The notes: generated by a model not told the origin, from the sequence alone. DNA of 64,000 bases from Raillietiella orientalis (GCA_036172245.1 JAYWIR010000060.1:1-64000); one strand, 5' to 3'. Counted from the first letter of the stretch, positions 730 to 33,436 are shown. Program-made: numbers and translations.

Positions 730-812
730 AAAAAAAAAAAAAAAAAATTCGTAACGAAGTCATGATTTGTTTTTTTTTTGTTGTTGTTGTTGTTGTTATT
801 GTTCTTTTTTTT
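730..812. repeat. Poly-A run plus (TTG)n/T-rich tract; on the minus strand the latter is the A/(CAA)-rich 3' tail of the adjacent LINE
   Basis: A-run at ~730-747; tttttttttg(ttg)n...ttttttt at 767-812. Confidence 0.8.
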
Positions 813-2945: not shown

Positions 2946-2959
2946 AGGACTCTCCCGAC

Positions 2960-3730: not shown

Positions 3731-3761
3731 CCATTCCCCGGAAAGATCAGCCCAAGTCGGA

Positions 3762-3830
3762 GGCCGGGTGGTAACGGTAGTCTCTGCGCGTGTCACCAAC
3801 AGTCACAGGTTCGAATACTTTGAACTCAAT
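3762..3830 (+). repeat. tRNA-derived (SINE-like) head, degenerate
   Basis: A-box-like TGGTAACGGT and B-box-like GGTTCGAATAC. Homologous to 33370-33436(-) and 60131-60194(+). Confidence 0.45.
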
Positions 3831-4649: not shown

Positions 4650-5240
4650 GGGAAATGTGAACCCGAACTGTATAGCAGGTGCGGAGCGCAAGGGTGGCTC
4701 CCGCAACTACTTGTGAACTGTGCTTCCCTCCGGCCCCTTCGAGGACGCTTTGACTTGACCCTGCGGACCTCCGGCGGCAACCCCAAAGACTTTAGGAAGC
4801 ACCTCTTTATGCGCGTTTTCCTCACGCCGGCCACGTCCCCGGCAGCTCTTTGCTGCCTACGCGGAATCGCATCGGCCTGAAGCTTCAGCAGACGAGTCAG
4901 GGACGACGGGGACGTCCTCGAGTTTGCAGTCCATTTTCTCAGGAACGCAAACCAATGTTCCCGTTTGCGAACTATCCAGGAGCAACGTGCCGGTGTGCGG
5001 GCACGCATACAGAGGACGCCTTTCAGCAGAATATGAACTCTCCAACATCCATCCGGAGTATTTTCCTATATACATATCTTCATGTATTTTTCTTCATTTT
5101 TCTCTTTGTCGACCCTCTCTCCCCTCTGCTGCCGAAACAAATCCCTCTGGTCTACGAACCGGATTCCCCGCAGCTTCCGAAGGTGATGGCCGTGGCAGGA
5201 ACGAGCGCCCTGCCATCGCCTTTTTCAGTTTTTTTTGCAA
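4650..5240 (+). mobile_element. Decayed 3' fragment of a LINE ORF2 (zinc-knuckle remnant and T-rich 3' UTR); mirrored at ~32056-32646
   Basis: YSRCGAQGWLPQLLVNCASLRPL resembles the CCHC knuckle of the 767-2945 element and is followed by a T-rich/C-rich UTR-like tract. Confidence 0.4.
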
Positions 5241-10600: not shown

Positions 10601-10606
10601 TTTATT
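10601..10606 (-). promoter_or_regulatory. Polyadenylation signal AATAAA of the left GM2AP-like gene (mirror at 26690-26695)
   Basis: AATAAA about 15 nt after the stop codon in both arms. Confidence 0.6.
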
Positions 10607-10620
10607 GGACAGAAAGATCT

Positions 10621-11591
10621 CTATTTGGATTTAAGAGTGAAGCGCAAATCGTAACAGAAAAGCTCCTCTCCGTTTTTCTTCAGCTCCAACCGAACGTGAT
10701 AATCACCTTCAAAGATAGGTACCGCCGGCTCCTCGTAGCTAAACTCCCTGTCAAACTGGTGGGGATAAAACGGACACTCTCCGAGAATAACGAGCTCTGA
10801 CAGGAACGTGCAAACACTGTCATAGTGGCAGCTTCCCACGTCTTCCACGCATTCAATTTTAACCCATTCGTCCAGTATTTTCACCTCCACAGTGACATCA
10901 AGCTGAAATCGGAGAAAAGAATTGAACTCTGCATCCGTTGATGGAAAGAGAATGCAGCTATAAGAGATGTGCTTCAGGATCTCTCGTTAGAGCTAGAGCT
11001 GGAAATGGTGCTGGGATTAGAGAATGCTCACCGATTGGCTGCTGTTGATTTCAATTTTCAGGTCACCCTTCAGTTGAACGTCCACATTTCCCGGGATGAC
11101 AATCGGATCCGGCTTCACCAGGAGAGAGATATCAAGAGCATCCTTTGACTTCGGGGAGCAGCTCTCGAAGCTGAAGCCACCCTGGAAGAACAGAAGGAAC
11201 AATCCAAATGGTCCCCTGTTTTGCCTGGTCACCCTGAGGTCCCATCTGCGCCATATTGCACATGCAGCCACGTCTCCTACCGAAGTCTCCCCAATCCTTC
11301 AACGAATTTTCGTAAGATCACTCGAACCATAGAGAAGTCGTTGAAGGTTCTGAACATTCGGAACACGGGAATGATTGACGCATTCTACCATCATGAGCGA
11401 TGGTAGGAGAGGGTGCACAAACGATCTCTCGGTGACCTTCCGCCATGCATTCAGTCAGAAACTCGGAAAAAGTTCGTTACCTTTGGGAGATTCCAGACGT
11501 GTATCAGATTTTCCAGCACGTTTTGGCCACGCTGAGGGGTCCTCGCAGAGGCCTGGAAGACGATGAGAGACAGCAGGAGAAACCGAATCAT
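10621..11591 (-). CDS. GM2-activator-like / ML-fold lipid-binding secreted protein, copy A (exons 11591-11481, 11181-11032, 10902-10621; ~180 aa, 6 Cys)
   Basis: Signal peptide MIRFLLLSLIVFQASA; FSFESC...VKPDPIVIPGNV; WVKIECVEDVGSCHYDSVC...GDYHVRLEL...LFCY, matching GM2A family motifs. Introns are phase-0 GT-AG and a polyA signal follows. An extra small exon in intron 1 cannot be excluded. Confidence 0.88.
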
Positions 11592-12139
11592 CCTCCGATT
11601 CTTATTCCCGTCAAACTTTAGAAGAGTGGAAGGTCTTAACGCAAAGGCAACTTTCCCAAGCAAGGAGGGCAGCCGAGTATTTAGAGGGTGTTGCTTATCA
11701 CTATCTGCTGTGCCTTTCCGGCCCCAGTCGAGCACTCTCCAACGCAGATGGGAGGCTATCAAAAACTCACACCATAGGAAATTTTTATTTCCAGATTCCA
11801 TCTCTCTAAGGAATAGCGGGAGGAATGCAGGTCTCGTTTTTCCATAAGGTGAACAGAGCGAGAAGTTTCTCGAACGCACTCTTTTCAGGAGTTCCGAGAA
11901 ACCAGGCGGAAGAAGGATGGGGACCTCTCACAGTGACATGAGGAGTGAAACCGGGATGCTACGGAAAGAATCGTGATGATGACGCCATGCACGCACGGTT
12001 CGGACAGCCAGTTGTGTCATTCTGCTGGGTTTTCAGACTAAAGACAAAGAAGTACTGAAGGAAGTGGGTTGGACATATCAGATCAGCGACCATCTCCACG
12101 TGGCATTAAATATGTCTCTCCACTCTCAATGCTTTATGG

Positions 12140-12690
12140 AGATTGAGTTGTAGGGTCAACCAGCAGCTGGATCGCGGACGTGTGGAGAGCAGGCAAAGGA
12201 TAAAAGAGGATATTACCCCGCAAGGGTGGCGAAGAGCTTCGACATAATTTATACGCTATTGGTGTTGACGGAGAACCACCGACGGTCGCTTGGTCGCCAT
12301 GCCAATGGACTCACATCCGTCTTACCGGGGGTCCTTGGAAGACAACGCCGATCTGACGCATGCAGTACGAGAAGGAACACGCGGTGGATCTTCTTTCTTT
12401 GGAGATGGCACTTTGCTCGTTCTCGGAAGCTGCTGCATTCCTTACGAGACAGACCCAGACTTTTGGTTTGCACGTTGCGAAGAAATTGAAACGAAGGAGG
12501 TGCCAGTAAATTTCAGATGGGGGCACAATAGCCACTTTGCTTGCATCAATATTTTCATCTGCAAAACGATTACCACGAAGTATCTGTGAATAACGGTAGC
12601 TTTCCCTCAATCCATCTGCATGCTTGTGGACACACGGAACAAGCGTATGTTGTAGGTGTTTTCAAACGCTTCGGTTGCAGGCCGAAGAGC
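12140..12690 (+). mobile_element. Decayed PIF/Harbinger-like DDE transposase relic (mirror ~24606-25150, minus)
   Basis: Ordered motif remnants across frames: VVG; YY/RKG; YRGSLEDNADL; FFGDG; HTEQAYVVGVFKRF. Compare Harbinger YxNRKG, GSxxD, GDxxY and IExxFGxLKxRF. Confidence 0.45.
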
Positions 12691-15600
12691 ACTGTGAGGT
12701 TTTTCATGAAGAGACTCAGTGAGATTTCTTTTCCAGAAGAAGCATCCACGTATGAAAGGACCAAAAATACTCCAAGTCTTTGACATACGAAAGTACATCA
12801 AACTGGTTGCAGAGATCTCTGTCGGACGTGAAAAGCTCTTGCTTCGCATACTCAGGATTTACACACGTTGCCATAGAAACGTCATTACGCTTGTGCTGCT
12901 CATAGCTTTCCGAATGTGCCTTATGGGTAAGCTTGCAGCGTCGGTCGTTGGCCACTATGACCACTATGAAGCGGCAGCTGAGACGATGCTCCTGAGGAAA
13001 TCCACCTAAAGATGCCGCCGAGACAATCTCTTTGCCAGGAGGTGTTGCTGCATGTTGCCTGCTGGGGGGAAGGAATTCCTCATGCCGGAATGATCGCCTG
13101 CAACTGGCCATTGCAGCGTTCCCACGAAACGACTCTCCCAAAGTGAATCACGTTATCTCGTGGGACTCAGATATTCCTCCGCTGAAAGTAAACTTTGTCC
13201 TCGGGAGGCTCAAACAAGCGCGCAAGCTGCAGATTTCTCAGGAGTAACGGTGGAGATTCCGTCGTTGACAACCACGATCCTGAAGCGATGTGCTTCATTC
13301 GATGAACCGAGTACCTCAGCTTAACCTATTCCTTGGCGACCAGAGATGAAGGTCGCCAAGGTAACGAGCTCAGGGGCACAAAGCAGCACAGAAAACTCCC
13401 TGCTACGACGGAAGAAACGAACTTTCCGTTAGCTCCATGGAGAAATTCCATATCGCGAGAGACAGGGAGGAAATAAATGAGATCAGCCCCTCATCTCATC
13501 GATACTGTTAATTGCAATCTGCCGCGTGCTTTCCGAACTTTCGCGAAAGTGAGTGTCGATAGGAGGAAGAAACATTGGGTAACTGAATTTCGACATGAAC
13601 GGCTCGATGTGACTTGCAGATCGTGTGCTGTGAACTGAGGTTTCTTCAGTTGAACGGAGCAATGTGGCAAGTGAAAAAAATAATGGAGTTGACAGCATTT
13701 TCATTCCAAAAGTCTATGTGGAAGGAAGGCTGTCGATCGAATTGCCGTGAGGACCTTTGGACAGAAGTCGGATGGACATGGATGGGATGAGAGCTCCTCA
13801 TTACCGCATGACTGCCTCCAGCTGTCATCACGTGCGCTCTCTCCTGCTGACTGCACGACTGCCTTCAGAAAATCACATGCATGTCACACGAGCGAACCAT
13901 CATTGCTCCACGGCCACATCACGTCCACTGAAGCACCTATCTTTTTCGGTTTCGGAAAATTCCAATGTCTGGTGATCGCGATTGCTAGGGCAACACGAGT
14001 CCTACAAAGTAAGGATCGAGAATCTTCCGGTTCTCATTGCTACTTGCGTGCACAATTCTGCTGTTGTTACTTTTATAGCTCGCCGAGATGGGACTCCATA
14101 AATCGCCAAATATTCATCTGAGGCGTCGCAAAACTGATCCTTCGAATTCAAGGGAATGCTGTTTTTTCTGAAAATGAGGATCTTTGACCACCGTTCAAAG
14201 TACAGCCTTTCCCAGCAAAAGAAAGTGTAAGAGGAAAGATGCAAACCTCTCCGTGGTTGTCTTTCTGCATTGCGACGAAATTTTTCCATGAACAGAGCAC
14301 CAAACCTTTCTTTCTTTTACAGTAATTTTCAACCTTCTCGTACATACCACAAAGGTACATCTCACTTGCTCGGAGCGTCACTTTTGAGTTCTCCTCGATC
14401 GAAGGATGAAGATATTATGGCCATTCAGAAGGACTTGGTAATCAGTCGAAACCATGTAGTTAGTCATGGGTTCCGAGCTGACGTGGACATACATATTCCG
14501 CTCACGGCATTCTTCTTGATGCATTGTGCGTGTCGACTGCCGAAGGAAAATCCATCTGCCTGAGCGCTCAGTTTTTCGAGCAGTAAACACTTTGCTCGGA
14601 ATGCGCTGTACTTCTCGAAAGCAGAGTTCCAGAGCGATTGGCATCTCTGTTCTCCGTGTAGAGGATCTCAGTATCTGGACCGGACATCGACATTGCGAAC
14701 AGGCCGAAGCACCTCATTCATGTCAGAGTTTAACCGAGCACTCATTTCATCCCCCGTGCGTTGCGTACTCGTGCATTGCGGTCATCTCAAGCTAGAATGA
14801 CAGCAGGGTCACTATGTGAAGAAGGTGGCCACTTCCGAGCGGGAAATGCGAAAAAGTTCATCTGGAATGAGGGATTGTATCCGTGGTTTGTCCGGAACAG
14901 AGCAACCAAAATAAAATCCGCTGTTGCATGTGAAGACAGAATTATCAGCTGACAGATGGATGACGCAGTGCGCTGCTGCTGGGAAGGTCGATCGTCGGAT
15001 CAGCGTGGGTACGGAATCCCTTGATAGGACAGGGGAAAAGAAGGCTCCCCACAGGGAAGACCAATGTGGCGGTGTTTGGGACAGCTCAAGTGCCCCATAA
15101 GCGCTCACACGGACATTGCCTGCCTGTGGACCAGGTATCACTCAGCAGTGATATGACCACTTCAGGAGAGCAAGCTTCCAGGTCACCAAAGCCTCTTTGC
15201 CATTGTGACTATCGAAAACTGGAAGACTCTGACGAAGCTGACACTTCTCATGGGGAGCGCGTAGCCAGAGGTGCAATAGGGTGGTTCTCAGATAATGGCT
15301 TGCGCTCATCGCCGAGCTCGCTTGCCTATTTTTCCAACTGCCACATCGTAGGAGTGGAGAGCGCTACTCTTCGACTGCTGCTCATGCATCCGACTGTTTA
15401 CTGTGTTTTTGCAGCCATGACTTTCGCACAAACTGATGGAGAAGGAAAATGAGCACGGATTTGCAGCTGTCGATAAGAATTCAGCCTCGAAAGAGCAGAG
15501 CTGGAGGCCACGTGATGCAACATGGAAAAAGCACTGCATAGCTGAAACATTCTCAAAGTGCCACCGTGCATGAACACCGTACGTGACTACAACGCTTGCC

Positions 15601-16199
15601 AGCCTCATGTCGTCACAGCGTGGCATTTGCATCGGGCGCCTTCAGGAAGCCGGAAACGGATCCAGCATCAACGTGAGAGGAGCATTCCCTAGGGAACAAC
15701 TGGGTAGTTCGTTCCGAGCTACTAACAACTTTCCCCATTTGCCGCCGCCAAACATTGCTCACATGGTTCCCTTCGTGCGGGATGACCACATGTACTTTCC
15801 TGGAAACAGAAAACACTTCAGACATAAGCGAAACTCCTCTTAACTTTTTTGCATTCATCTCCACGTAAGTGGCTATAAAACTGTCTTGCTCGTTGACAGT
15901 GACTATGGGAAGAATCGGGAATAGTGCAAGGCACCGCGCGAAAACATCCCGATGGCGACCAGCACGCAAGATGGGACATCACTCGAGAAATCGCAAGAAA
16001 AAGTAGGAAACTGGAATACCGAGCGGCATATCAACATTCTGACGTCTTCCCCCCAGCCGCCCGACTAGTCCAATGGGCTTCTTCCATGAGACCACTAACT
16101 CCTAATGGTCCCGGAACACCGAGACATTCTCCCGATGTTCCTCGGCATTTTTAGCTTCCCTTCAAGTGGCAGCAGGACGTCATTGGAGCCCTCACTAGG

Positions 16200-16850
16200 C
16201 GCTCTGTTGAGGCCAGAGCCGGCGCTGCTGAACAAGGAAAAGTGTGACCTCGGAATGTGCCCAGCGCGGAGAAACGAAAACCCTTCTGCACCTACTGATT
16301 GTGCAGATCGCCCTTCGGTATGTGTGGCAATGCCACGCCACCGCCCTACAATCAGAAAGCGACAATTCCAAAAACGTGATGGAACTGCTCAGTGGCGTAG
16401 CGCAATTCCGCATCGGTCTCAGCTGCGCGCTGCCTCCGCGCAAGGCCCAGGCAACAGGCGATGCTGCAAGAGGTTCTCTCAAACAGATCGCGAGAGGCTG
16501 TTTCCTCTTGAATAGGACCTTGAGATGACCCGATCCATGTCGAAACCAGGAGGAGCTTGCATGCATTCTGGACAGAATGCTGGAAACAACAGGAAGGGCT
16601 CAGTCAGCTCTTTCCTTGCCTTCCCACCGTTCCCTAATATTTCAAGAACCCTTTCTTTCTTGTACATTCTTTTCTCACACTTATTTCCTTTTTTACCCTA
16701 TGTGGAGCTCTCAAGGACATTCCTTCTCGGGCATGAATACCTTCCGGGATGTCTCCCTACTTGGCAAGACGATGCTGCTACGGTCGAATCACCCTCCCCA
16801 TTTCCCGATACATTAACAGACGATACATTTCTAGATATGTGGCTTTCCCT
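16200..16850 (+). mobile_element. Decayed LINE 3' fragment (zinc-knuckle remnant and T-rich UTR); mirrored at ~20430-21070
   Basis: SECAQRGETKTLLHLLIVQIALRYVW resembles the knuckle followed by W in L1/Tx1 ORF2; a pyrimidine-rich tail follows. Confidence 0.45.
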
Positions 16851-16979
16851 AGAAACACCTCGTCGTACAAGACGCCTTGCTGCGTGAGCACTCAGCGACC
16901 CCGCCTATGTGGTGCGAACAAACTGAATCTATTCAAGAGATGAGTCTGGTGTGGTTGACAGTGTGGTAGGAAATAATAC

Positions 16980-17500
16980 CACGAAACACAAATAAGGAGG
17001 ACGCGTATGTGGAAAGAATTTTGTTGGAACATCTCAATGGACGGTGGCAGCTGCCGCGAAAGAATCAATTCCAGGAACCAGGAAGATGTGGAGCCGACCT
17101 GGACAGCAGAGCCGGACTGGATCCACTTGGATGTAATGTCCTCAAACCAAACACTTCGAACGGATCCGCTGGATCTTCTCCAAGTGGTTGGTTGGAGGAC
17201 TGGGACGTTGCAGAAGTCTGGTGCGGCCGTTCCGGAAAAGTCCAAATGGCGATCGGCCCGTTCCAGAACGACAAATTTTGTTTGACGCAACGCACTCCGG
17301 TGCGGAGCTCGGATGTGCCGCCTCTCCTTCAGCACCACCTCTCTGGTATCTTCTTCTTCGCGGTCGTCAAGGACGGACCGAAAAACCTTCCAACAGGTGC
17401 CCATTCCGGCAAAGGGAAGTTCACATTCTGAAGTAAGGTCTTCTGTGGTCCGAGTAAGGATGCTGGACTAGGGCTCCCAACGCTTTAGCAGCTGGAGATT
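16980..17500 (+). mobile_element. RT C-terminal fragment of the same Tx1-like family as 767-2945, crossing the arm/spacer boundary
   Basis: VAEVWCGRSGKVQMAIGPFQNDKFCLTQRTPV aligns with AAEAWSDRLQKMELAIGPFRDGKFYLQERAAV. VFCGPSKDAGLGLPTL aligns with DLCAPRRDGGLGLLTL. Confidence 0.8.
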
Positions 17501-18179
17501 CCGTTCCACCTGCGCACACCCTTTTGTTGAAAGGTTATTTATCAGCCAACTCGTGTCATTTGCCACGAAAAGCGATTGCATGCGTTGGACTTTCTTCCGT
17601 TTTCGCGGCAAATCACACGAGTTTTAGCCTCTTCAGCAGTCAGCTACGTCGAATGGTTGCCTTGGTTGCGGAGGATCTCCTGCTGCCCCTTCGGCCTCAC
17701 TCTTTCACTTTACAAGTCAGTTTTAGCTCTTGTAGGTAAAGTGTGGAGGCTCGAGGAAGGCAGACTACGTTAGTCTTCGAAGAAACAGATACGCTCGACA
17801 TGCTTGGGAGGATATTCCCTGCAATCCGCCCAAGTTCCCGTGGGGTTTGTTCTGCCCCTCATCCCCATCGCTGCCATCCTTGAGAGAAAACAGAGCCGAA
17901 GTGATCGCATGAACGCAGGAAGCAAAGTGCTGCTGCATTGCATTAAAAAGGAAAACTCTTTGCGCACCAAGAAATCCGCAGCCAACGGATGCGGCGACCT
18001 GGTGTGCCCCACCAGGAAAACTTCTTCGATGGGACGAGCTGCTGGGGATTGCAAGGAAATCCCGATGTGACTCCCGGTTCTGCAGAGCAACCGTTCCCTC
18101 TCTGCCCACGCTCCGGATATCCGAGGGCAATACCCGGAGACGTTATCAAGCGCCTGTTTGCGTGGGAGGCGCGGACTCA

Positions 18180-18960
18180 CGAGTCGCGTGCGTAGCAGCT
18201 GCTTCTTCAACGCGAGGGACAGTATGGGTATGGAACGCCACGTGAAGGCGCCAACACGCCAGTGGTGTCGGTGCCCATTCGGGAAACGACAAATGCCACC
18301 TTCACAGCATCTTCCACATGAGGAAAGCGACGTTGCGCATCACGCTGGGATTCCTTCCATGTGCCCCCAAATGCATTTTTGATGACACTCTTTCTTAGGT
18401 TTGTTCCGTTTTTCTTCACACTATGCGTCCCTGCGTAAAACCCCGGGCGACCGGTGGAAAGAACTCTCTTTGTGTTTTCCACTTGGAAGGACAATTCTTC
18501 TGCAAAATAACCGAATTCTTTATCATTATTATCCTAAGACAAATAACCCATCAGATGCGGTTGAACGACTACGCTCTCACTCGTGCAACCGTACACTTCT
18601 TTTTGTTGGCGAGTTTGCCCATTCCCCCCCACAGGGTGAGTTCGAAGCATTCCTCGAGCGTGTCCTCCGGGCGTGGGGAACAACAAATGGGGCTGTCGGG
18701 TTACTTACTGCGACACCCCGTGCAAAAATGCCATCGAGAATCGCGTTCCCTGTCTATCGCCTCCGATCGCGAGAGCATGTGGCACCCCTGACTGCCTGCG
18801 TGTCCGCTAAAAGCACTTATGGGCATTCTCGCTCCTGTGGAATGCGTTGCAACCGTCTGTGGTTCCAGTGGTCATTGCTGAGGAACAGGTCGGAAGTCGG
18901 GGAAACGGGTGGTTACCCATTCCGTGGCTTGACGTGGTCACGTTGCCCGTGGACGTTCAA
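18180..18960 (+). repeat. Diverged third copy of the unidentified block at ~8590-9350 (and its mirror ~27950-28705)
   Basis: Shared blocks such as gaaagaactctc.ttgtgtttt.cacttggaag and atcgcgagagcatgtggcacccctgactgcctgcgtgtcc occur in collinear order. Confidence 0.85.
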
Positions 18961-20181
18961 GGAGGCAATGCCGGACGGACACAAAGCTGAAAACGCCTGG
19001 GAGATCTCTGTGATCCCTTCCTTTATCTCTTCCTTTTTCCCAATATTATATTCTGGACTTCGGCTCCAATTGAAAACCCACGAGCCTTGCGACGGTCGCT
19101 CCCCTTGGGACGTTTCGATTTGACCTCTTTCTGATTCGTTCCTGTCGTTTTCTCGTTTTGAAAGTGGAGTACATTAGCGTCGCCAATTTGCTTGGCACTG
19201 AGCGGCGATTCCATACCGCCACCGTTGGTCGCCCTCCTCGCCTCTTCGACTGTGTCCTCAATCGCCGCGTTGCCGTCGGGAAAAATCCGACAGGCTCGAA
19301 CGAGCGTCGGGATGTCACGGCGCTTAGCCGATTTGCCCGTGTCGGCTTCATCCCTCGTGTGTGTTACCACCGTCCGACCCGCTTCGTCGGTCATTCTTTC
19401 CCCTCTTTCGGGAATAGTTGACCGTATCTCTGTTGGCTGCTGCACTCTCATAAGTGACCTCTTTTGTTGTTCCTTTCCTTTTGTTTCAGTGCTCTAAAGA
19501 CGTGCTTTTTTTATCTTTTGTCGATTACCCCCTCTTTTTGAGCAAGCTCCCCCCATGTGGCCCATCTGTCCGTGGCGACGCCTACTTGTTTGAAGGCGCC
19601 TCCTCCTCTTTGGATGTTCGGTTCGTTGCTGCATACTTTGGATGTCCTGGGGATGCGCTTGTCGACGCATTCTTCTCTCAACTTTGTCTTAAGGGGAGGG
19701 CGCTCGCCTTCCAGCACGGCGACCCTGGCTGCTGCTAAGCCGCCAAATGCTCCCTGGAATTTTGGAAAAAGCACCACTCGAAACAGTACGCGTACGCAGT
19801 CGTTGCTTTCGAGTGCTGTTACGGAGGATGTCGTTCTCGTTTACGCGCAGCTTCAAAGAGCCGGTCAAGAGGACCACAGCTGAATCCCAGCGGTCACGAG
19901 GTTGGGCCTTCTTACCAAGATGTTCACGATGTACTCTGCGGTCGTCAAAAGCAAACTCCCGGTTTGCAATTGCAGACTCCGTGATTTCATCCCTACGTGC
20001 AACAAAGTGGCCATGAAGGTTTCTTTTGGCGGCGTTGTGGTTTCGCGATCGCTCCTCGAAGGAGCGCGCAACCGACTCGAGTCGTAGACGGATTACCTTC
20101 TACAAAAGGGTGGGTCGATATCCTGAAGTGAAGATGGTCGTTCACTGCGCCTCGACCGCAGGCATGAAAGTGGCAACGATA

Positions 20182-23100
20182 CGGCTCCACATCTTCCTGG
20201 TTCCTGGAATTGATTCTTTCGCGGCAGCTGCCTCCGTCCATTGAGATGTTCCAACAAAATTCTTTCCACATACGCGTCCTCCTTATTTGTGTTTCGTGGT
20301 ATTATTTCCTACCACACTGTCAACCACACCAGACTCATCTCTTGAGTAGATTCAGTTTGTTCGCACCACATACGCGGGGTCGCTGAGTGCTCACGCAGCA
20401 GGGCGTCTTGTACGACGAGGGGTTTCTAGGGAAAGCCACATATCTAGAAATGTATCGTCTGTTAATGTATCGGGAAATGGGGAGGCTGATTCGACCGTAG
20501 CAGCATCGTCTTGCCAAGTAGGGAGACATCCCGGAAGGTATTCATGCCCGAGAAGGAATGTCGTTGAGAGCTCCACATAGGGTAAAAAAGGAAATAAGTG
20601 TGAGAAAAGAATGTACAAGAAAGAAAGGGTTCTTGAAATATTAGGGAACGGTGGGAAGGCATGGAAAGAGCTGTCTGAGCCCTTCCTGTTGTTTCCAGCA
20701 TTCTGTCCAGAATGCATGCAAGCTCCTCCTGGTTTCGACATGGATCGGGTCATCTGAAGGTCCTATTCAAGAGGAAACAGCCTCTCGCGATCTGTTTGAG
20801 AGAACCTCTTGCAGCATCGCCTGTTGCCTGGGCCTTGCGCGGAGGCAGCGCGCAGCTGAGACCGATGCGGAATTGCGCTACGCCACTGAGCAGTTCCATC
20901 ACGTTTTTGGAATTGTCGCTTTCTGATTGTAGGGCGGTGGCGTGGCATTGCCACACATACCGAAGGGCGATCTGCACAATCAGTAGGTGCAGAAGGGTTT
21001 GCGTTTCTCCGCGCTGGGCACATTCCGAGGTCACACTTTTCCTTGTTCAGCAGCGCCGGCTCTGGTTCCACGGGATGCCCAATGAGGTGGTCTCAACGAC
21101 GTGTCCTGCTGCCACTTGAAGGGAAGCTAAAAACTGCCGAGGAACATCGGGAGAATGTCTCGGTGTTCCGGGACCATTAGGAGTAAGTGGTCTCATGGAA
21201 GAAGCCCTTTGGACTAGTCGGGCGGCTGGGGGGAAGACGTCTGAATGTTGATATGCCGCTCGGTATTCCAGTTTCCTACTTTTTCTTGCGATTTCTCGAG
21301 TGATGTCCCATCTTGCGTGCTGGTCGCCATCGGGATGTTTTCTAAGTGCGGTGCCTTGCACCCGTCTATTCCCTCTGATTCTTCCCATAGTCAACGTCAA
21401 CGAGCAAGGATAATGCAGGAAGCCGACCACATGCGGAGATGAATGCAAAAAAGTTAAGAGGAGTTTCGCTTATGTCTGAAGTGTTTTCTGTTTCCAGGAA
21501 AGTACATGTGGTCATCCCGCACGAAGGGAACCATGTGAGCAATGTTTGGCGGCGGCAAATTGGGAAAGTTGTTAGTAGCTCGGAACGAACTACCCAGTTG
21601 TTCCCTAGGGAATGCTCCTCTCACGTTGATGCTGGATCCGTTTCCGGCTTCCTGAAGCCGCCCGATGCAAATGCCACGCTGTGACGACATGAGGCTGGCA
21701 AGCGTTGTAGTCACGCACGGTGTTCATGCACGGTGGCACTTTGAGAATGTTTCAGCTATGCAGTGCTTTTTCCATGTGGCATCACGTGGCCTCCAGCTCT
21801 GCTCTTTCGAGGCTGAATTCTTATCGACAGCTGCAAATCCGTGCTCATTTTCCTTCTCCATCAGTTTGTGCGAAAGTCATGGCTGCAAAAACACAGTAAA
21901 CAGTCGGATGCATGAGCAGCAGTCGAAGAGTAGCGCTCTCCACTCCTACGATGTGGCAGTTGGAAAAATAGGCAAGCGAGCTCGGCGATGAGCGCAAGCC
22001 ATTATCTGAGAACCACCCTATTGCACCTCTGGCTACGCGCTCCCCATGAGAAGTGTCAGCTTCGTCAGAGTCTTCCAGTTTTCGATAGTCACAATGGCAA
22101 AGAGGCTTTGGTGACCTGGAAGCTTGCTCTCCTGAAGTGGTCATATCACTGCTCAGTTATACCTGGTCCACAAGCAGGCAATGTCCGTGTGAGCGCTTAT
22201 CGTCACTTGAGCTGTCCCAAACACCGCCACATTGGTCTTCCCTGTGGGGAGCCTTCTTTTCCCCTGTCCTATCAAGGGATTCCGTACCCACGCTGATCCG
22301 ACGATCGACCTTCCCAGCAGCAGCGCACTGCGTCATCCATCTGTCAGCTGATAATTCTGTCTTCACATGCAACAGCGGATTTTATTTTGGTTGCTCTGTT
22401 CCGGACAAACCACGGATACAATCCCTCATTCCAGATGAACTTTTTCGCATTTCCCGCTCGGAAGTGGCCACCTTCTTCACATAGTGACCCTCCTGTCATT
22501 CTAGCTTGAGATGACCGCAATGCACGAGTACGGAACGAACGGGGGATGAAATGAGTGCTCGGTTAAACTCTGACATGAATGAGGTGCTTCGGCCTGTTCG
22601 CAATGTCGATGTCCGGTCCAGAAACTGAGATCCTCTACACGGAGAACAGAGATGCCAATCGCTCTGGAACTCTGCTTTCGAGAAGTACAGCGCATTCCGA
22701 GCAAAGTGTTCACTGCTCGAGAAAGTGAGCGCTCAGAGAGATGGATTTTCCTTCGGCAGTCGACACGCACAATGCATCAAGAAGAATGCCGTGAGCGGAA
22801 TATGTATGTCCACGTCAGCTCGGAACCCATGACTAACTACATGGTTTCGACTGATTACCAAGTCCTTCTGAATGGCCATAATATCTTCATCCTTCGATCG
22901 AGGAGAACTCAAAAGTGACGCTCCGAGCAAGTGAGATGTACCTTTGTGGTATGTACGAGAAGGTTGAAAATTACTGTAAAAGAAAGAAAGGTTTGGTGCT
23001 CTCTTCATGGAAAAATTTCGTCGCAATGCAGAAAGACAACCACGGAGAGGTTTGCATCTTTCCTCTTACACTTTCTTTTGCTGGGAAAGGCTGTACTTTG

Positions 23101-26100
23101 AACGGTGGTCAAAGATCCTCATTTTTGGAAAAAACAGCATTCCCTTGAATTCGAAGGATCAGTTTTGCGACGCCTCAGATGAATATTTGGCGATTCATGG
23201 AGTCCCATCTCAACGAGCTATAAAAGTAACAACAGCAGAATTGTGCACGCAAGTAGCAATGAGAACCGGAAGATTCTCGATCCTTACTTTGTAGGACTCG
23301 TGTTGCCCTAGCAATCGCGATCACCAGACATTGGAATTTTCCGAAACCGAAAAAGATAGGTGCTTCAGTGGACGTGATGTGGCCGTGGAGCAATGATGGT
23401 TCGCTCGTGTGACATGCATGTGATTTTCTGAAGGCAGTCGTGCAGTCAGCAGGAGAGAGCGCACGTGATGACAGCTGGAGGCAGTCATGCGGTAATGAGG
23501 AGCTCTCATCCCATCCATGTCCATCCGACTTCTGTCCAAAGGTCCTCACGGCAATTCGATCGACAGCCTTCCTTCCACATAGACTTTTGGAATGAAAATG
23601 CTGTCAACTCCATTATTTTTTTCACTTGCCACATTGCTCCGTTCAACTGAAGAAACCTCAGTTCACAGCACACGATCTGCAAGTCACATCGAGCCGTTCA
23701 TGTCGAAATTCAGTTACCCAATGTTTCTTCCTCCTATCGACACTCACTTTCGCGAAAGTTCGGAAAGCACGCGGCAGATTGCAATTAACAGTATCGATGA
23801 GATGAGGGGCTGATCTCATTTATTTCCTCCCTGTCTCTCGCGATATGGAATTTCTCCATGGAGCTAACGGAAAGTTCGTTTCTTCCGTCGTAGCAGGGAA
23901 TTTTCCGTGTTGCTTTGTGCCCCTGAGCTCGTTACCTTGGCGACCTTCATCTCTGGTCGCCAAGGAATAGGTTAAGCTGAGGTACTCGGTTCATCGAATG
24001 AAGCACATCGTTTCAGGATCGTGGTTGTCAACGACGGAATCTCCACCGTTACTCCTGAGAAATCTGCAGCTTGCGCGCTTGTTTGAGCCTCCCGAGGACA
24101 AAGTTTACTTTCAGCGGAGCAATATCTGAGTCCCACAAGATAACGTGATTCACCTTGGGAGAGTCGTTTCGTGGGAACGCTGCAATGGCCAGTTGCAGGC
24201 GATCATTCCGGCATGAGGAATTCCTTCCCCCCAGCAGGCAACATGCAGCAACACCTCCTGGCAAAGAGATTGTCTCGGCGGCATCTTTAGGTGGATTTCC
24301 TCAGGAGCATCGTCTCAGCTGCCGCTTCATAGTGGTCATAGTGGCCAACGACCGACGCTGCAAGCTTACCCATAAGGCACATTCGGAAAGCTATGAGCAG
24401 CACAAGCGTAATGACGTTTCTATGGCAACGTGTGTAAATCCTGAGTATGCGAAGCAAGAGCTTTTCACGTCCGACAGAGATCTCTGCAACCAGTTTGATG
24501 TACTTTCGTATGTCAAAGACTTGGAGTATTTTTGGTCCTTTCATACGTGGATGCTTCTTCTGGAAAAGAAATCTCACTGAGTCTCTTCATGAAAAACCTC
24601 ACAGTGCTCTTCGGCCTGCAACCGAAGCGTTTGAAAACACCTACAACATACGCTTGTTCCGTGTGTCGACAAGCATGCAGATGGATTGAGGGAAAGCTAC
24701 CGTTATTCACAGATACTTCGTGGTAATCGTTTTGCAGATGAAAAGATTGATGCAAGCAAAGTGGCTATTGTGCCCCCATCTGAAATTTACTGGCACCTCC
24801 TTCGTTTCAATTCCTTCCCTACCTGCAAACCAAAAGTCTGGGTCGGCCTCGTAAGGAATTCAGCAGCTTCCGAGAACGAGCAAAGTGCCATCTCCAAAGA
24901 AAGAAGATCCACCGCGTGTTCCTTCTCGTACTGCATGCGTCAGATCGGCGTTGTCTTCCAAGGACCCCCGGTAAGACGGATGTGAGTCCATTGGCATGGC
25001 GACCAAGCGACCGTTGGTGGTTCTCCGTGGTGGTTGAACACCAATAGCGTATAAATTATGTCGAAGCTCTTCGCCACCCTTGCGGTCCTCTTTTTGCCTT
25101 TGGCTGCTCTCCACACGTCCGCAATCCACTTGCTGGTTGACCGTACAACTCTATCTCCATAAAGCATCGAGAGTGGAGAGACATATTTAATGCCACGTGG
25201 AGATGGTCGCTGATCTGATATGTCCAACCGACTTCCTTCAGTACTTCTTTGTCTTTAGTCTGAAAACCCAGCAGAATGACACAACTGGCTGTCCGAACCG
25301 TGCGTGCATGGCATCGTCATCACGATTTTTTCCTTTGCATCCCGGTTTCACTCCTCATGTCACTGCGAGAGGTCCTCACCCTTCTTCCGCCTGGTTTCTC
25401 GGAACTCCTGAAAAGAGTGCGTTCGAGAAACTTCTCGCTCTGTTCACCTTATGGAAAAACGAGACCTGCATTTCTCCCGCTATTCCTTAGAGAGATGGAA
25501 TCTGGAAATAAAAATTTCCTATGGTGTGACTTTTTGATAGCCTCCCAACTGCGTACGAAGATGCTCCATATGGGCCGGAAAGGTTAAGCAGATAGTGATA
25601 AGCCACACCCTTTAAATACTCGGCTGCTCTCCTTGCTTGCGAAAGTTGCCTTTGCGTTAAGACCTTCCACTCTTCTAAAGTTTGACGGGAATAAGAATCG
25701 GAGGATGATTCGGTTTCTCCTGCTGTCACTCATCGTCTTCCAGGCCTCTGCGAGGACCCCTCAGCGTGGCCAAAACTTGCTGGAAAATCTGATACACGTC
25801 TGGAATCTCCCAAAGGTAACGAACTTTTTGCGAGTTTCTGACTGAATGCATGGCGGAAGGTCACCGAGAGATCGTTTGTGCACCCTCTCCTACCATCGCT
25901 CATGATGGTAGAATGCGTCAATCATTCCCGTGTTCCGAGTGTTCAGAACCTTCAACGACTTCTCTCTGGTTCGAGGGGTCTTACGAAAATTCGTTGAAGG
26001 ATTGGGGAGACTTCGGTAGGAGACGTGGCTGCATGTGCAATACGGCGCAAATGGGTCCTCAGGGTGACCAGGCAAAACAGGAAACCATTTGGATTGTTCG

Positions 26101-29100
26101 TTCTGTTCTTCCAGGGTGGCTTCAGCTTCGAGAGCTGCTCCCCGAAGTCAAAGGATGCTCTTGATATCTCTCTCCTGGTGAAGCCGGATCCGATTGTCAT
26201 CCCGGGAAATGTGGACTTTAAACTGAAGGGTGACCTGAAAATTGAAATCAACAGCAGCCTCTCGGTGAGCATTCTCTCATCCCAGCAGCATTTCCAGCTC
26301 TAGCTCTAACGAGAGATCCTGAAGCACATCTCTTGTAGCTGCATTCTCTTTCCATGAATGGATGCAGAGTTCAATTCGTTTCTCTGATTTCAGCTTGATG
26401 TCACTGTGGAGGTGAAAATAGAGGACAAATGGGTTACAATTCCCTGCAACTATAACCTGGGAAGCTGTTACTATGATAGTGTCTGCATCTTCTTGTCAGA
26501 GCTCGGTTTTATCGGAGGGTGCCCACTTCATCCCAAACACATTGACAAAACGATTCGGACCCAGGCGCCGGACCTTCCTATCTTCGAAAGTGATTATCAC
26601 GTTCGGTTGGAGCTGAAGAAAAACGGAGAGGAGCTTTTCTGTTACGATTTGCGCTTCACTCTTAAATCCAAATAGAGATCTTTCTGTCCAATAAAGCGCA
26701 TCCACAACGCGTGTTGGCGTGTATCAGGGAATGTGGCGAAGAAAAGATGGGTGATGGCTCTTTCTCGGGTTACGTTCCAAGCGATTTCAGATGGTTCTCT
26801 TTTCTGCATCGAGGATATTTTCCCATTGATGGTGGCAAGAGCGCCTCAGAGCTGCCCTCTGCCCAAATTCCTTCTTTGAATGCTTCAGGGTGTCCGAGAC
26901 CACTCACACATCTACCTGGAAAAGTGGAAGATGGATGGTCAAACCTCCAGCACCGCCACCGGCTCCATGGCGAAAACTCCGCGATCAGCATCCGCACTCC
27001 CTTCTTCCCAGGGTTGTACGGTGCATGTGGACACACGTGGTATACTTTTATATTGGACTGTATACACGCCCTCGGCTAGGAGGCGCCCGAGAGATACACT
27101 GCCCTCGGTTGCTGAATTCCGTGAGCCTCCTCAAGCAATGGCTCACTTTTCTGGTCGACTGAATGCTGCTGAAGAAGAGAGGCGCCTGGTTCTTTTCAGC
27201 CGTGAGGGCACTCGAACGTAATGGGTGGGCATGGATGCGACAGAACGACGCAGCATCCCCATACTTCCCTTCTTGCAATGTCCCTCTCTTACTCGAGTTG
27301 CCAGATTCGCCCCCTCTTCTGGGGCCGTAACAGCGGGCAATGCTTGGACTGCTGCTGTCAGCGTTTTCCGAACTCCACGAATGTTTGATGTTTTCCCAAA
27401 GCATATGGCACTCGCCATCCACCAAGTTTACCACCGCTTCTTATTGCTTGCTGAACGAACCTGGATGCAATCCTTTGTGTCCGCTTCGTCAGCGAAGAGG
27501 GAGCAATGAACCAAAGCAAAAAATAAACAACAAAAAAAAGGGTTCGTGGGTTTTTACAGTAAGGGCGGCGAGATTGGTGAAAGGTTCATAGCTGCCGTTT
27601 GTTCGCAACTTCGCATGCAGGGTTTTGGCAGTTTCGCTTCTGTGGTCGCTTAGGTACGGCCATCTTGCGGAGATCCTTATGAAAATGAAGTACGAAGAGT
27701 TTCGGAAATAAAGCCGAGAGCTGAGAGAAGGATCGCATTTCCTCGGGGAATGGATGTACCGTACACGGATAACGGAAGTATGCGGGGGGTCCGAGGAATG
27801 GTGCACAGCGAGCATTTTCCGCTCAAAGAACAAATTTGGAGACAAAGCAAAGAATGCCTCAGCTTTCACTTCCGCTTTCATTTGACTATGAGGAGCGAAC
27901 CGGGAAATTTCCCAGCAATGATGAAGGGATTCCCCTCCTTCCTCCAACTAGCGGAGCGTCCACGGACTGCGCGGCGACGTCAAGACACGAAAAGGGTAGC
28001 CACCTGTCGCGATGACCTTCGACCTGAAGCTCAGCTATGGCTAAATAACAGCAAACGGTTGCAGCGGATTTGCGGAGAATCCCAGAAGGGCCTTTGGAGG
28101 ACACGCAGGCAGTCAGGGGTGCCACATGCTCTCGCGATCGCTCGCGGTCGACAGGGAACGCGATTTTGATGACATTTTTGCACGTGGTTTCGCCCGGCAG
28201 CCCATGTGCAGTTCCTCAAGCCAGTGGTCCATGTTCGAGGAAGTTTTCGAGGTGATCCTCTTGAGGAGTGGGGGCACACGCGTAAGCGTAAAAGGGTGAA
28301 CGGTTGCACCAGTTAGGATGCCATTCTTTTTCTGTATTTTTCTGGACATTTATTAGAAAATAATAAGGATAATCAATTCGGATTTTCGTTGGAAGAATTG
28401 GTTCTTCCAAGTGCAAAACACAACGAGAGTTCTTTTCCACTTCCCCGGGATTTCATGCGGGTAGGCATGGTATGAAGATAAACGGGAAAAATGGAAGGAA
28501 GAATGTCATCAAAAATGTTTATGGGAGGAAGCGATCCCAGCGTGTTCCACGAAGTCTCTTTTCTCATCCGGAATACGTTGACAAAGTGGCGTTCGAGGAT
28601 TCTTAAGTGGGCACTCACTCCTCTGTGGTGTTTGTGTCTTCCCGTGGCATTCCATGCCCCAACTGTCCCTCGCATGGAACAAGCGGTTGCTAAGCACGTT
28701 CCCGCAATAGGCTTTCCACCTCTTCCTATGGCTGCTGCCAAGTGCCTTCTTCAAGTGGTACATCGCTGCATCTGCTCCGCCCACGCGCTCACCTCAACCT
28801 GCGTAGGAGCGTGCAGTGCTTTCCTCATACAGTTCTCCAAGCTGAGAATGAAAACCATGGAAAATTCAAAACCCTTAAAGTTGCGTATCGTCCCTTAATG
28901 TCACCTACTCCTTTGAGTAGGTGACATCAAACTTGAAGTGTTCTTAAGATTACGCAAACTTTGATTCGAGCGACTCAATTACGAAACATCCATTTTTACA
29001 ATGAAGGATCAACTGATGCTCGCCTTCACGGTACTGTACCTTAAGAAAAGTGTTTCTTTCACTAAGATCCGTACCCTGTTCAGCACAATGAGTGAATTGC

Positions 29101-32100
29101 AGATTAGCAAATATAGCTGTTGGCCCCATACCCCGTTCACGATTCTCCTCTGTGATCTCTTTATTCTCACTCCATCAGAGCAACTTCTCTTTGGTCTAAT
29201 CATCCGAATAACATCGATCGCATTTTCCACTCGAATATGCTCACTAATTTGGCTTGGAAATGAGCTCATTTTACATACGCATCATCTTTCTCATTGCATT
29301 TTCCCTATTTTCTACTCTCGCCAGCCTCAGTTTCCTATTTTTCTAGGCCTTCTGTGGCTTTTGTTTTCTCCCCTCACCTATCTCATCAATGATAACTTTG
29401 AAAATAATAACACAACCGTTCCACTATTGAATCGTTGGCTATTTCTCATACCTATGCACCGTAGGAACCTTAAAAATATCACTGTAATGCATGATTTTCC
29501 TTTCACAACCGCAAACACTGATCCACTAATCTTTTTCGCCCCACCCTGTGGGATTGCAAGAAATAATGCCACAACCACTAGAATGGAATAACCATCCCAT
29601 CCGCTTGCAGTTATCCTTTTTCGTTCAATCATCACATCATTCATGAAGAAATTACGCACGAACCCTCATCTTACCTTTGCATCCATAATTATGAATAAGA
29701 AAAAATTCCATCAATGTCGAGGAACACTGAAGACCCACAATAGTCATTGCCATGACCTCGCCTAGCTAGTGTGGTCAATCATAATTCCAAGCTGGGGTAA
29801 AGGGTTTGTGAGCTCTCTTACAAACACTGACACGGTCCTCATTGACATTTTATATCCATTGCCCCTTATGTTTGCTTCTATCGGAATGGAATACCCAACA
29901 TTTTGACCTCCAATCCCAGTAAAGTCTTTGAAATCTGTCCCTGAGTGGCATGCAGTTACTAAACCTCAATACTCCCACTCAAGACACAACCGTCTTCCTT
30001 ATTCCCACTTTTTCCTAGAGTCCCGAATCTGCGACTGAGAAATGGCGGAATGCTTGTAAAGTGTTTGACGATGCAAAATGATCGGAAGGGTAATATATGT
30101 AGATTTCGTTTGGTTTCTATTTCCGACACCCGAGCACCTTTTTCTGGGCATTACCATGATGCCACTGCTCTTCTTAGTACGGCACCCGGAAACGTTATAT
30201 CTTATCAATCCATCCCTTTGTGTCACCAACATTCTATCCGTTTTCCTTCTATTCTGGTCATGTTCTCATTCCATAATCTTGGCTTTCACACACTTTGTTA
30301 CTTATCCATGCATCGTCATTCCTGTCAGTTTCTTCTCCTTGACATCATCATACCCAGCATTCGTTTTCTCTTTACATCGTAGACGTTTTCGTTTCCTTCT
30401 CTTAGAAAGCATCTTTAAGTTACGGAGAAGAATCCACACTTGATCTCAAACGCTTTCTCTTCATTCCCCTATTGCTCACTCACCCTATTCGTCTCTTCTC
30501 ATCCCTTCCTTACGCTGAAAATCCGACCCTCACGAGCCAGTTTCCTCATGTCCTCATTTTCCTTGCCTGGGCTCAGGACAATATCAGCCATTATGAAGCA
30601 AGAAACTCTATAAACGAAAATAGCCCTTCGTCGTCTTCATCGACAAACCTGAAAATCACAGTCACGCGTGTCAACAAGAAACTCACACCACCTTTTATTT
30701 TCGAAATCTGCCATCCCCCACAGGAATCCCTCTTATTCACCAGCTAAGTACAGTGACCACCATTTCTACACTTTGCAGCCCTGAAATCACAGAAGCTTTA
30801 TCAGCCTCATGCCCAATGCGAAAAACTGTTGACCCTCTCGTGATATGGAGGCTGATCACCGCCTATTTATTCTCATTTGCCATTTGCCTCTGTATCTTGA
30901 GTGTATCGCACTTACCGTTTTTGCAAAAACACCGCAGTTTGAACGTTCCCCTAGTGAGGACATCATTGCAAGGATACGCTGTCCCTTCAGGACAAATGTA
31001 CCTCCGAGCTTGCAGGGTTCTTACCAATCTTTTTTGCTTTATTCTCTATATTGGTGGAACAGCTGTGTATTTCTTACAAAAATGAAATTTCTTTCGCACC
31101 TCCGGCAGTGCCCTCAACCGATTTCTGTTTCTTCATTTCATCCTTCGTCATACCCACAAACGATAAGGACGTGCGCAATGTCTGCGCGGGAGCCTTGCAA
31201 ATTCGGCTTCCTGCGTAGAGCTCTGCTTATTACTGCCAGCCCGGTCGACCTTCTTCTGGATGCATTCATCTTGAGATTCGAGCTTCGTTGTATGCATTCT
31301 TGCGCGGCACTAAGATGTCAGGCAATAAGACGTAACGTATGGCAGTTCATCATGTCCTCTGAATTCAGGGGTGATTACAATCTTATTCACGAGCAGCAGA
31401 GCAATTTCAATTCTTACTTTCAGCATACTTACTGTTTTGCACGCTGATGTTGAGTTCTGAAATTACAATGGTACGTACGGTAAGAGATGCAAGACGTCGA
31501 CCCAGATGTCAGTCTCTGAAGCTGGGACTTCGAAGACTGAGGTCTTCCACGAGACACAGGAAGGATTTGCGTTCCAACGTTTGCTCTGCTGAGGAGTGAT
31601 CAGCGGAATCAGTCTACAGACATTCGCAAGGCATGTTCTTCTTGCTTTCAAGTGCCTCACGAACGAGGCTAAAGAGTTCGGTGGGCACCCGATGCAGCGT
31701 GGCGCAGTTTGAATGGTCGTCCGTTAGGAGTGACCGACAATTCGATCTTGGAATCGACCCATGCGTTGTTCCCGCAAGCCGATGAAGGCTGCCGCTGCTG
31801 TCCTTGATGACCGCGCGCGAGCCGCCGTGGACGGTCGCCCCGACCCTTCTGGGCGCGGAATTCCCCCCAACGGTCGGCTGCTGGCTCATCTTCGTCGCGC
31901 CGTACGAGCCACCACTGTGGTTCCTCCGTGTCTTTGCAGCCGTCTGGCGGCGTCTTTGTCCTCCTTGCCGTTCATTTCAAGTGCTTTCCGCCGTGCTGGT
32001 GCGCTGAGTCTCTGTCGGCAGTTTCACTTTCAGGGAGCGCGCCGGACAGGTTCTTTTGCAAAAAAAACTGAAAAAGGCGATGGCAGGGCGCTCGTTCCTG

Positions 32101-33241
32101 CCACGGCCATCACCTTCGGAAGCTGCGGGGAATCCGGTTCGTAGACCAGAGGGATTTGTTTCGGCAGCAGAGGGGAGAGAGGGTCGACAAAGAGAAAAAT
32201 GAAGAAAAATACATGAAGATATGTATATAGGAAAATACTCCGGATGGATGTTGGAGAGTTCATATTCTGCTGAAAGGCGTCCTCTGTATGCGTGCCCGCA
32301 CACCGGCACGTTGCTCCTGGATAGTTCGCAAACGGGAACATTGGTTTGCGTTCCTGAGAAAATGGACTGCAAACTCGAGGACGTCCCCGTCGTCCCTGAC
32401 TCGTCTGCTGAAGCTTCAGGCCGATGCGATTCCGCGTAGGCAGCAAAGAGCTGCCGGGGACGTGGCCGGCGTGAGGAAAACGCGCATAAAGAGGTGCTTC
32501 CTAAAGTCTTTGGGGTTGCCGCCGGAGGTCCGCAGGGTCAAGTCAAAGCGTCCTCGAAGGGGCCGGAGGGAAGCACAGTTCACAAGTAGTTGCGGGAGCC
32601 ACCCTTGCGCTCCGCACCTGCTATACAGTTCGGGTTCACATTTCCCCCGTGTTCAGTGATGTCGGCCGGCGTTGCAAGAGGGCCCCCAATGCAGCAGCAT
32701 ACCTCTTAATTCCTGCTTCTTAAGTGGATGGATGTGGGGATTTCTCATCACTGGGAGCCTCCCCGACGGTAACGATCGTAAGGCTTCTACTGGGCTTACG
32801 GTGATGGAAATCCTTTCTTTTCTGTCGTCGCAACTCTTCGACACCACGTTAAAAATGTTGTGTGTAATTCTTAAAGTTAGGGTACCCGGGAGGGTTGAAT
32901 CCAGGAAAGGCTTGGAGTCCGTTCCTCTAACGTAGAAGGAAGGTTTCTCGAAAATGGAGATCACCTCCACCTGGAATGTCTCCGAAGGAGAATCTCCATG
33001 AAAGTCTTCGTTATTCTCTCCAAAGGGACCCACGGGGGCATGCGCCTTACTTTTTCTTCTCCGGAGGGGTCCGCCGCAAGGGATTTGCTCCTGTTTACTC
33101 CCCTGAAAAGAACCCCGAGGAAACGCTCCCGAAATTCTGAACGACGCTGCCTACCCGAAGGGATCGGCTCGCTTCTCTGCACTCTCTAGAGAGGTGGTGA
33201 CGGCACTCCTACTTTATCAGTACGACCCGGAGGGTCCTCCC
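20182..33241 (-). repeat. Right arm of the ~13 kb inverted duplication
   Basis: Reverse complement of 4055-17096 with scattered substitutions, small indels and a few divergent patches. Confidence 0.97.
25705..26675 (+). CDS. GM2-activator-like / ML-fold lipid-binding secreted protein, copy B (exons 25705-25815, 26115-26264, 26394-26675; ~180 aa, 6 Cys)
   Basis: Mirror of copy A. Splice sites are AAG|GTAACG, CCAG|GGT, TCG|GTGAGC and TCAG|CTT. Exon 3 reads WVTIPCNYNLGSCYYDSVC. AATAAA at 26690. Confidence 0.88.
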
Positions 33242-33369
33242 GGCATGGTGCGTCCGCTCTCCTCCACATCCGGATGGGATCTCCCCTCCTTGATTCCTGG
33301 AAGGACCCAAAAGTCGACTCCCATTTGTCTCGGTCCTCATCGAACTGAATCGACGGCTGTGTCGATTGA

Positions 33370-33436
33370 GTTCGGAGTATTCGACCCCGTGACGCTTGGT
33401 GACACGCGCGGAGACCACCGTTACCACATGGCCTCC
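33370..33436 (-). repeat. tRNA-derived head, diverged inverted counterpart of 3762-3830
   Basis: Reverse complement reads ggccatgtggtaacggtggtctccgcgcgtgtcaccaagcgtcacggggtcgaatactcc. Confidence 0.45.

Follow-up and report, generated by a model that had tools for sequence, protein, structure and literature searches.

Divergence peaks between paralogs that exchange sequence by gene conversion are well described in human RHD/RHCE, exon 5 of the red/green opsin genes, Drosophila and yeast, and their theory has been developed by Innan (2003) and by Teshima & Innan, as reviewed in PMC3924837. Here, we analysed a 64,000-nucleotide (nt) stretch of DNA from Raillietiella orientalis (GCA_036172245.1 JAYWIR010000060.1:1-64000; the whole of this stretch is called the window), which carries a pair of twin genes resembling the ganglioside GM2 activator (GM2AP), one in each arm of a large inverted repeat, and in their third exon a 171-bp block that differs deeply between the two copies. 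We conclude that this locus adds a clean and deep case from a lipid-binding family to a phenomenon already known, the divergence island in paralogs that undergo conversion, and that it is neither a new kind of system nor a new mechanism.

The closest described systems share several features with this locus. As in the RHD/RHCE and opsin pairs, the paralogs are near-identical by conversion save for a short exonic island, and similarity is higher in the introns and flanks than within that island; in those pairs the island is read as a target of selection against conversion. The twins differ in that they sit in a palindrome instead of a tandem array, and in that their island is very deep (29% of nucleotides and 51% of residues) and takes in a complete structural module rather than a few tuning sites. 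The invertebrate gene pair GOT1p1/GOT1p2 of the copepod Tigriopus californicus also shows divergence islands amid converted sequence and poses the same choice between selection and neutral suppression of conversion, and population data in that account show occasional conversion across the islands (PMC3728101). The architecture resembles that of mammalian sex-chromosome palindromes as generally described, with arms longer than 10 kb, a unique spacer, a gene copy in each arm and homogenisation that is inferred, but the arms exceed 99% identity there, whereas here they are 97.4-98.2% identical and strongly mosaic. Homogenised inverted gene pairs comparable to the twins are also described among the inverted-repeat paralogs of Caenorhabditis (PMC1803023). 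Finally, the ATP1A1 paralogs of toad-eating frogs offer a parallel in which continuing conversion works against the partitioning of roles between duplicates; in that account a few co-adapted substitutions of known function are involved, whereas any function of the twins is putative (10.1101/2020.08.04.234435).

Based on self-blastn, the segment 3953-17096 pairs with 33342-20182 in inverted orientation at 97.4% identity over 13,175 columns, in agreement with an earlier interpretation of this DNA (hereafter, the sequence-only reading), which had described a near-identical palindrome. When the exon-3 block was excluded, the arms differed by 233 substitutions in 12,811 aligned columns (1.8%). The inner border of the arms is sharp, the outer border lies at 3953/33342, and the flanks outside the arms (1-3700 and 33600 onward) are mutually unrelated. 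An inverted self-match was looked for by self-blastn in the spacer between the arms (17097-20181) and none was seen, and the window is without any N. At the level of the sequence the palindrome is real. The twin genes are arranged head-to-head, one copy per arm, with both 5' ends pointing toward the spacer.

Against this background, the two versions of the block differed at 50 of 171 nt (29%), and only about 3.1 differences are expected per 171 nt at the 1.8% background level (Poisson P(>=50) = 7e-42). Amino-acid changes affect 29 of the 57 codons (51% of residues), and a further 7 codons change synonymously only, with no indel, no stop and four Cys in each copy. The excess of acidic over basic residues (D/E minus K/R) in the block is 11 in the left version and 3 in the right. 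The exon-3 flanks of the block, comprising 9 codons before and 27 after, differ at 0 of 108 nt, and the next difference downstream is found at 10583, leaving 121 nt identical past the block. All of these block counts reproduce those of the sequence-only reading, whose identical last 27 residues proved to be identical also at the nucleotide level, and whose remark that the adjacent intron and 3' flank differ little is supported by the 121 identical nt and by the 7 of 129 nt that differ in intron 2. The introns exceed the arm average (11 of 299 nt in the other intron). The coding sequence outside the block differs at 6 of 372 nt between the twins. Within the block, the differences are evenly spread (3-10 per 19 nt), all 12 substitution types are present, and no stretch of identity exceeds 12 nt. 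A localised mutator is unlikely because of these 12 substitution types, the lack of base bias and the even spread. Base-specific or templated hypermutation, of the kind produced by diversity-generating retroelements, was considered and rejected, given all 12 substitution types and no adenine bias.

Next to the depth of the block stands its age at silent sites. By the Nei-Gojobori method, the block contains 11.8 synonymous differences in 34.8 sites (proportion pS, 0.34) and 38.2 non-synonymous differences in 136.2 sites (pN, 0.28), giving an omega of 0.78. The remaining 36 codons of exon 3 contain 0 differences on approximately 23 synonymous sites (Fisher p 0.0018 versus the block). Since divergence is as high at silent sites as at replacement sites, what sets the block apart is a longer history rather than a higher rate of change: exon 3 holds two histories, and the block is old rather than fast-evolving. 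The older synonymous age of the block is thereby established, and the label 'hyperdivergent' and the selection-driven change that the sequence-only reading had proposed did not hold. Recent positive selection on a young duplicate was rejected for the same equality of silent and replacement divergence. In the family alignment, the mean entropy of the identical flank residues is 2.54 bits versus 2.29 bits at the differing block positions. Since the flank columns are variable in the family, the identity of the flanks reflects recent common ancestry and not constraint. In common with described divergence islands, the flanks are homogenised with mosaic tracts, and silent sites date the island to an earlier time than the sequence on either side of it.

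The divergence along the arms is itself a mosaic. Outside the block, the number of substitutions per 500 bp ranged from 0 to 25, with a low-divergence part at 4453-7952 (0-4 per 500 bp) and high-divergence parts at 8953-9952 and 10953-12452 (17-25 per 500 bp). The index of dispersion was 8.8 (51 segments of 250 columns, p 2e-63). Three stretches without any difference, of 973, 798 and 686 bp, surpassed the longest one produced by 2000 permutations, which was 596 bp. These counts establish the mosaic, and the arms show the pattern expected of an old duplication overwritten piecemeal by conversion tracts of different ages. The conversion between arms that the sequence-only reading had invoked is consistent with this alternation of near-identical and diverged tracts, as conversion would leave it, and conversion would thus be the homogenising process. 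Homogenisation is least around the gene, with a divergence of 3.4% at 10876-11709 versus 0.4% in 4453-7952. Seven further diverged patches were detected in the arms (22-133 columns, 15-41% divergence, mostly with indels). No other arm patch, with or without indels, is as large as the block, which sits in the coding 4% of the arm. One of the seven further patches, free of indels and located upstream of the twin genes (Table 1), is close in depth to the exon-3 block. This upstream patch, which contains runs of three adjacent changes, may mark divergence of the promoter or 5' untranslated region of the twins.

The twin genes were assigned to a family by sequence and by predicted structure. In a phmmer search against the PDB, exon 3 matched the mouse GM2 activator 2agc at E 1.5e-9 (left) and E 3.8e-6 (right), and a profile built from 52 GM2A-like homologues covered the spliced models end to end with 126 and 114 bits. 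When single exons were scored, exon 2 reached 16.4 and 17.1 bits against the Pfam ML domain (PF02221 clan; gathering cut-off, 22.7) and exon 3 alone gave no Pfam ML match; the homologues retrieved by exon 3 had Pfam ML scores of 39-57 bits, over the cut-off. A search of 1.84 billion representative proteins with exon 3 returned 79 matches at E <= 1e-3, the top one being 40% identical. Ten of the top 12 matches were looked up, and eight of their ten clusters had named members, all of them animal proteins: four of the eight were ganglioside GM2 activator-like, and three were MD-2-related lipid-recognition domain proteins. The top GM2A-like matches came from molluscs, arthropods and frogs, each at no more than 40% identity. 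A search for close protein relatives by shared 5-residue words found none sharing enough words with the query to score, and a scan of metagenome contigs with the two-copy alignment gave 201 pattern matches, none of them encoding a relative.

AlphaFold2 models of the exon-3 peptides, which represent the C-terminal 93 of approximately 164 mature residues, were built from an 83-row alignment and reached a predicted local distance difference test score (pLDDT) of 78.5 for the left and 79.8 for the right copy. In a Foldseek search of the PDB with the left model, the top seven matches were all GM2 activator (best E 4.7e-4; TMq 0.61-0.69). In conjunction with the phmmer and homologue-profile results, these models establish the predicted fold and place the twins among GM2-activator/ML-fold-like genes, as the sequence-only reading had suggested. 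Like the GM2 activator (PDB 2agc, 1g13, 1pu5, 2ag2 and 1tjj), the twins have a conserved Trp and a conserved core of Cys, Gly, Ser and Tyr, but they differ from it in being short-form proteins of 22-28% identity, for which lipid binding is putative. The GxPCxCPF segment of most relatives, with its two Cys, is absent from both twins, and with it the CxC pair pattern; the mature model has six Cys, and the other conserved Cys are kept (C18, C25, C31, C43 and C83). The absence of this segment from both twins makes them sister versions inside one short-form subfamily.

The three-exon model of each gene is based on homology and splice motifs only, with exon 1 and the transcription start predicted, and the placement of the block in exon 3 by the sequence-only reading agrees with it. 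Short introns of the spliceosomal type mark the window as eukaryotic DNA, and the spliced models have 180 codons each with a single, terminal stop in both copies. The predicted N-terminus encoded by exon 1 is hydrophobic in the twin genes and reads as a candidate secretory signal. In exon 2 (11035-11079 / 26217-26261), we also observed four nucleotide differences that change three codons (Val/Phe, Gln/Lys and Gln/Leu) and no codon synonymously only, counts too low to infer from.

Several features point to constraint on both versions of the block. Neither copy has a broken open reading frame (ORF) or splice motif. At the arm rate of 15 indels per 233 substitutions, about 3.2 indels are expected per 50 substitutions and none is found in the block (P 0.04). 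Amino-acid changes affect 3 of the 13 family-conserved columns versus 26 of the 44 others (Fisher p 0.03). These results establish protein-level constraint in both copies, and both look functional as judged from sequence and models. At the differing positions, the left copy matches the commonest family residue six times and the right copy four times, and neither is simply ancestral.

The predicted secondary structure is identical for the two copies, with strands at exon-3 residues 2-9, 12-15, 66-76 and 79-90 and a helix at 30-36, and residues 37-65 form a long low-confidence coil in both AlphaFold2 models. In these models, the identical flanks correspond to three long scaffold strands, and the block spans all that lies in between as a module of a short strand, a Cys-rich segment, a single helix and a long loop; the distribution of the differing positions over these elements is given in Table 1. 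Positions 45, 50 and 54 show conservative hydrophobic changes, from Phe to Leu or Ile, and the polar positions switch charge. In human GM2AP, the loops around Trp63 and Trp131 rim the mouth of the cavity. When exon 3 was aligned to human GM2AP, its Trp13 fell on chain residue 63 and its residues 53-64 on residues 120-133, regions which we take to be the apolar, mobile loops that surround the entrance to the lipid cavity. The two versions may differ in ligand or membrane preference. Of the two different segments on a common scaffold that the sequence-only reading had proposed, the modelled helix-and-loop module between strands stood; the selection-driven difference did not.

Our preferred explanation, to which we give about an even chance, is that a palindrome undergoing conversion has retained the block as a relic island, with selection acting against its being overwritten and heterology as a further aid. 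In this scenario, an old inverted duplication would hold two genes, placed head-to-head, for secreted lipid-binding proteins of the GM2-activator-like (ML-fold) type, and arm-to-arm gene conversion would repeatedly re-homogenise the 13-kb arms in a patchwise manner. The 171-bp block would go back to the original divergence of the copies, which is much older and which conversion has failed to remove here, and the result would be one scaffold with two helix-and-loop modules, one strongly acidic and the other near-neutral. The island probably persists both because conversion tracts that overwrite the block would be selected against and because the block, whose stretches of identity never exceed 12 nt, would be a poor substrate for heteroduplex formation. 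Selection would thus be the reason for the persistence of the island, and it is plausible that it preserves the two versions.

Several observations weigh against this explanation. The divergence of the block (29%) is no higher than that of the non-coding patches (15-41%), so that a neutral relic is possible; the sequence-only reading had itself named divergence no greater than that of neutral unconverted patches as an outcome that would count against it. An omega of 0.78 is indistinguishable from 1 with two sequences and does not establish a selective difference. The left copy has Glu at a position where Pro is found in 79 of 79 relatives, and the right copy has Ser at a Gly position (57 of 62 relatives) and Asn where Val, Ile or Leu is found in 71 of 79 relatives; these odd residues at conserved positions could reflect relaxed constraint. 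Finally, the sharp borders of the block on both sides within the exon are equally expected from one imported tract.

Such an import forms the first alternative, which we consider unlikely though deserving of serious weight. The palindrome would then be young, with the approximately 1.8% divergence of its arms, and the exon-3 module of one copy would have been overwritten by ectopic conversion from an older short-form paralog outside the window. The sharp borders inside one exon and a synonymous divergence of the block that far exceeds that of its flanks are in line with this, and the presence of a GM2-activator-like cluster of at least four genes in 64 kb suggests that more paralogs possibly lie nearby. 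However, tblastn and sensitive blastn detected no donor within the 64-kb window that carries either version of the block, so the cassette donor put forward by the sequence-only reading found no support there; the other matches in the window were two paralogs, with approximately 30% amino-acid identity or 67-70% nucleotide identity over 47-67 nt. To recombine at 71% identity and with shared runs of at most 12 nt, a donor would have to match almost perfectly on either side of the module, and this requires once again a family with a homogenised scaffold and a spared module. Moreover, import leaves the other diverged patches and the arm mosaic unexplained, and the two versions are similarly far from the family consensus.

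We regard as distinctly unlikely that the block is a neutral relic without functional meaning, missed by conversion through chance alone and shielded from then on by its own heterology, which blocks heteroduplex formation; in this case, one of the twins may be on its way to becoming a pseudogene. The omega value, the alteration of each copy at a near-invariant family position and the similar divergence of non-coding patches would all fit. Such a relic is at odds, however, with amino-acid changes that spare the conserved columns and with the absence of indels, with the retention of all Cys and core residues and the prediction of the same confident scaffold for both copies, and with the block being the largest patch, and the largest free of indels, while lying inside the coding 4% of the arm.

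A broader scheme, in which conversion would homogenise the beta-strand scaffold throughout the family while helix-and-loop modules would be kept as specificity cassettes and occasionally exchanged, the palindrome linking exactly two of them, as an invertebrate, germline-encoded means of diversifying the recognition of microbial or dietary lipids, is in our view improbable. An assembly artefact, in which two diverged haplotypes of a single locus were joined as inverted arms and the block represents a highly diverged allelic polymorphism, is very improbable: the patchy 1.8% divergence with small indels does resemble heterozygosity in outbred invertebrates, but homology stops sharply at the borders, inner as well as outer, and the arms enclose a unique 3.1-kb spacer that does not form a palindrome of its own. 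Alleles should stay homologous beyond the arms, yet the outer flanks are unrelated, and no N is present in the window.

Table 1. Positions of the inverted repeat, the twin genes, the diverged segments and the structural elements of exon 3 (structural elements are numbered by exon-3 residue)
Feature	Position	Strand	Remarks
Left arm of inverted repeat	3953..17096	.	13.1 kb; self-blastn; sharp inner boundary at 17096
Unique spacer between arms	17097..20181	.	3.1 kb; contains a 73%-identical dispersed-repeat copy at 18187-18830
Right arm of inverted repeat	20182..33342	.	self-blastn
Left gene exon 1 (predicted)	11481..11591	-	37 codons; ATG, hydrophobic signal-like N-terminus, GTAACG donor
Left gene exon 2	11032..11181	-	50 codons; weak Pfam ML-domain match, 16.4 bits
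Left gene exon 3	10621..10902	-	93 codons + stop; phmmer to 2agc, E 1.5e-9
Right gene exon 1 (predicted)	25705..25815	+	
Right gene exon 2	26115..26264	+	
Right gene exon 3	26394..26675	+	93 codons + stop
Divergent block, left version (acidic)	10705..10875	-	codons 10-66 of exon 3; D/E 13, K/R 2
Divergent block, right version	26421..26591	+	D/E 7, K/R 4
Upstream patch, left copy	11710..11766	-	indel-free; 14/57 nt differ; ~120-175 nt upstream of predicted ATG
Upstream patch, right copy	25530..25586	+	mirror coordinates; left + right = 37296
Turn	residues 10-11		1/2 positions differ
Strand	residues 12-15		2/4 positions differ
Cys-rich stretch	residues 16-29		6/14 positions differ
Helix	residues 30-36		1/7 positions differ
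Coil	residues 37-65		18/29 positions differ
Residue 66	residue 66		1/1 position differs

Other features of the repeat and its surroundings were recorded. A dispersed repeat of approximately 650 bp is present once per arm (8599-9223 and 28075-28698), and its 73%-identical copy in the spacer has the same orientation as the left-arm copy. Immediately beyond the arm borders, an 85%-identical piece (3739-3852 versus 33343-33456) was found, the left side of which carries a 100-bp insertion (3853-3952). This piece has a tRNA-T-arm-like GGTTCGAAT motif and may be an element resembling a short interspersed nuclear element (SINE) at the duplication breakpoint; tRNA genes were sought in the whole window, arm border included, with ARAGORN, and none was called. 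The GC skew is strong (+0.28) at 6001-8000 in the left arm, and the mirrored right-arm part at 28001-32000 has a negative skew (-0.14 to -0.15).

The window also contains two more GM2-activator-like paralogs on the minus strand, at 37858-38368 and 57882-58416, which are approximately 30% identical to the twins and each have exon-2-like and exon-3-like pieces. The paralog near 38 kb retains the canonical GLPCSCP segment, and the ORF at 37846-38220 scores 30.3 bits against Pfam ML, over the cut-off. Counting the twins and these two distant paralogs, the cluster comprises four or more members of the family. Immediately outside the left arm, at 2064-2963 on the minus strand, lies a 300-codon ORF with a reverse-transcriptase domain (RVT_1, 54.7 bits), which is 73% identical to a metagenome protein and is probably a fragment of a retroelement lacking long terminal repeats (non-LTR). 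At 49097-49480 on the minus strand, an ORF with a chitin-binding peritrophin-A domain (CBM_14, 26.4 bits) is consistent with an animal genome. The region 42001-48000 is AT-rich, with a GC content of 37-42%, and its flanks have 51-63% GC.

If our preferred explanation is true, the locus would reveal, by a contrast that arose naturally, where a GM2-activator-like protein can, or must, vary while the remainder stays identical, and this variable part would be codons 10-66 of exon 3, chiefly the 24-residue loop stretch with its 18 differing positions. With 0% divergence beside 29% within one exon, it would be an unusually sharp case for models of conversion versus selection. The twins would then also offer a ready-made pair for probing lipid or membrane specificity in a poorly studied invertebrate family.

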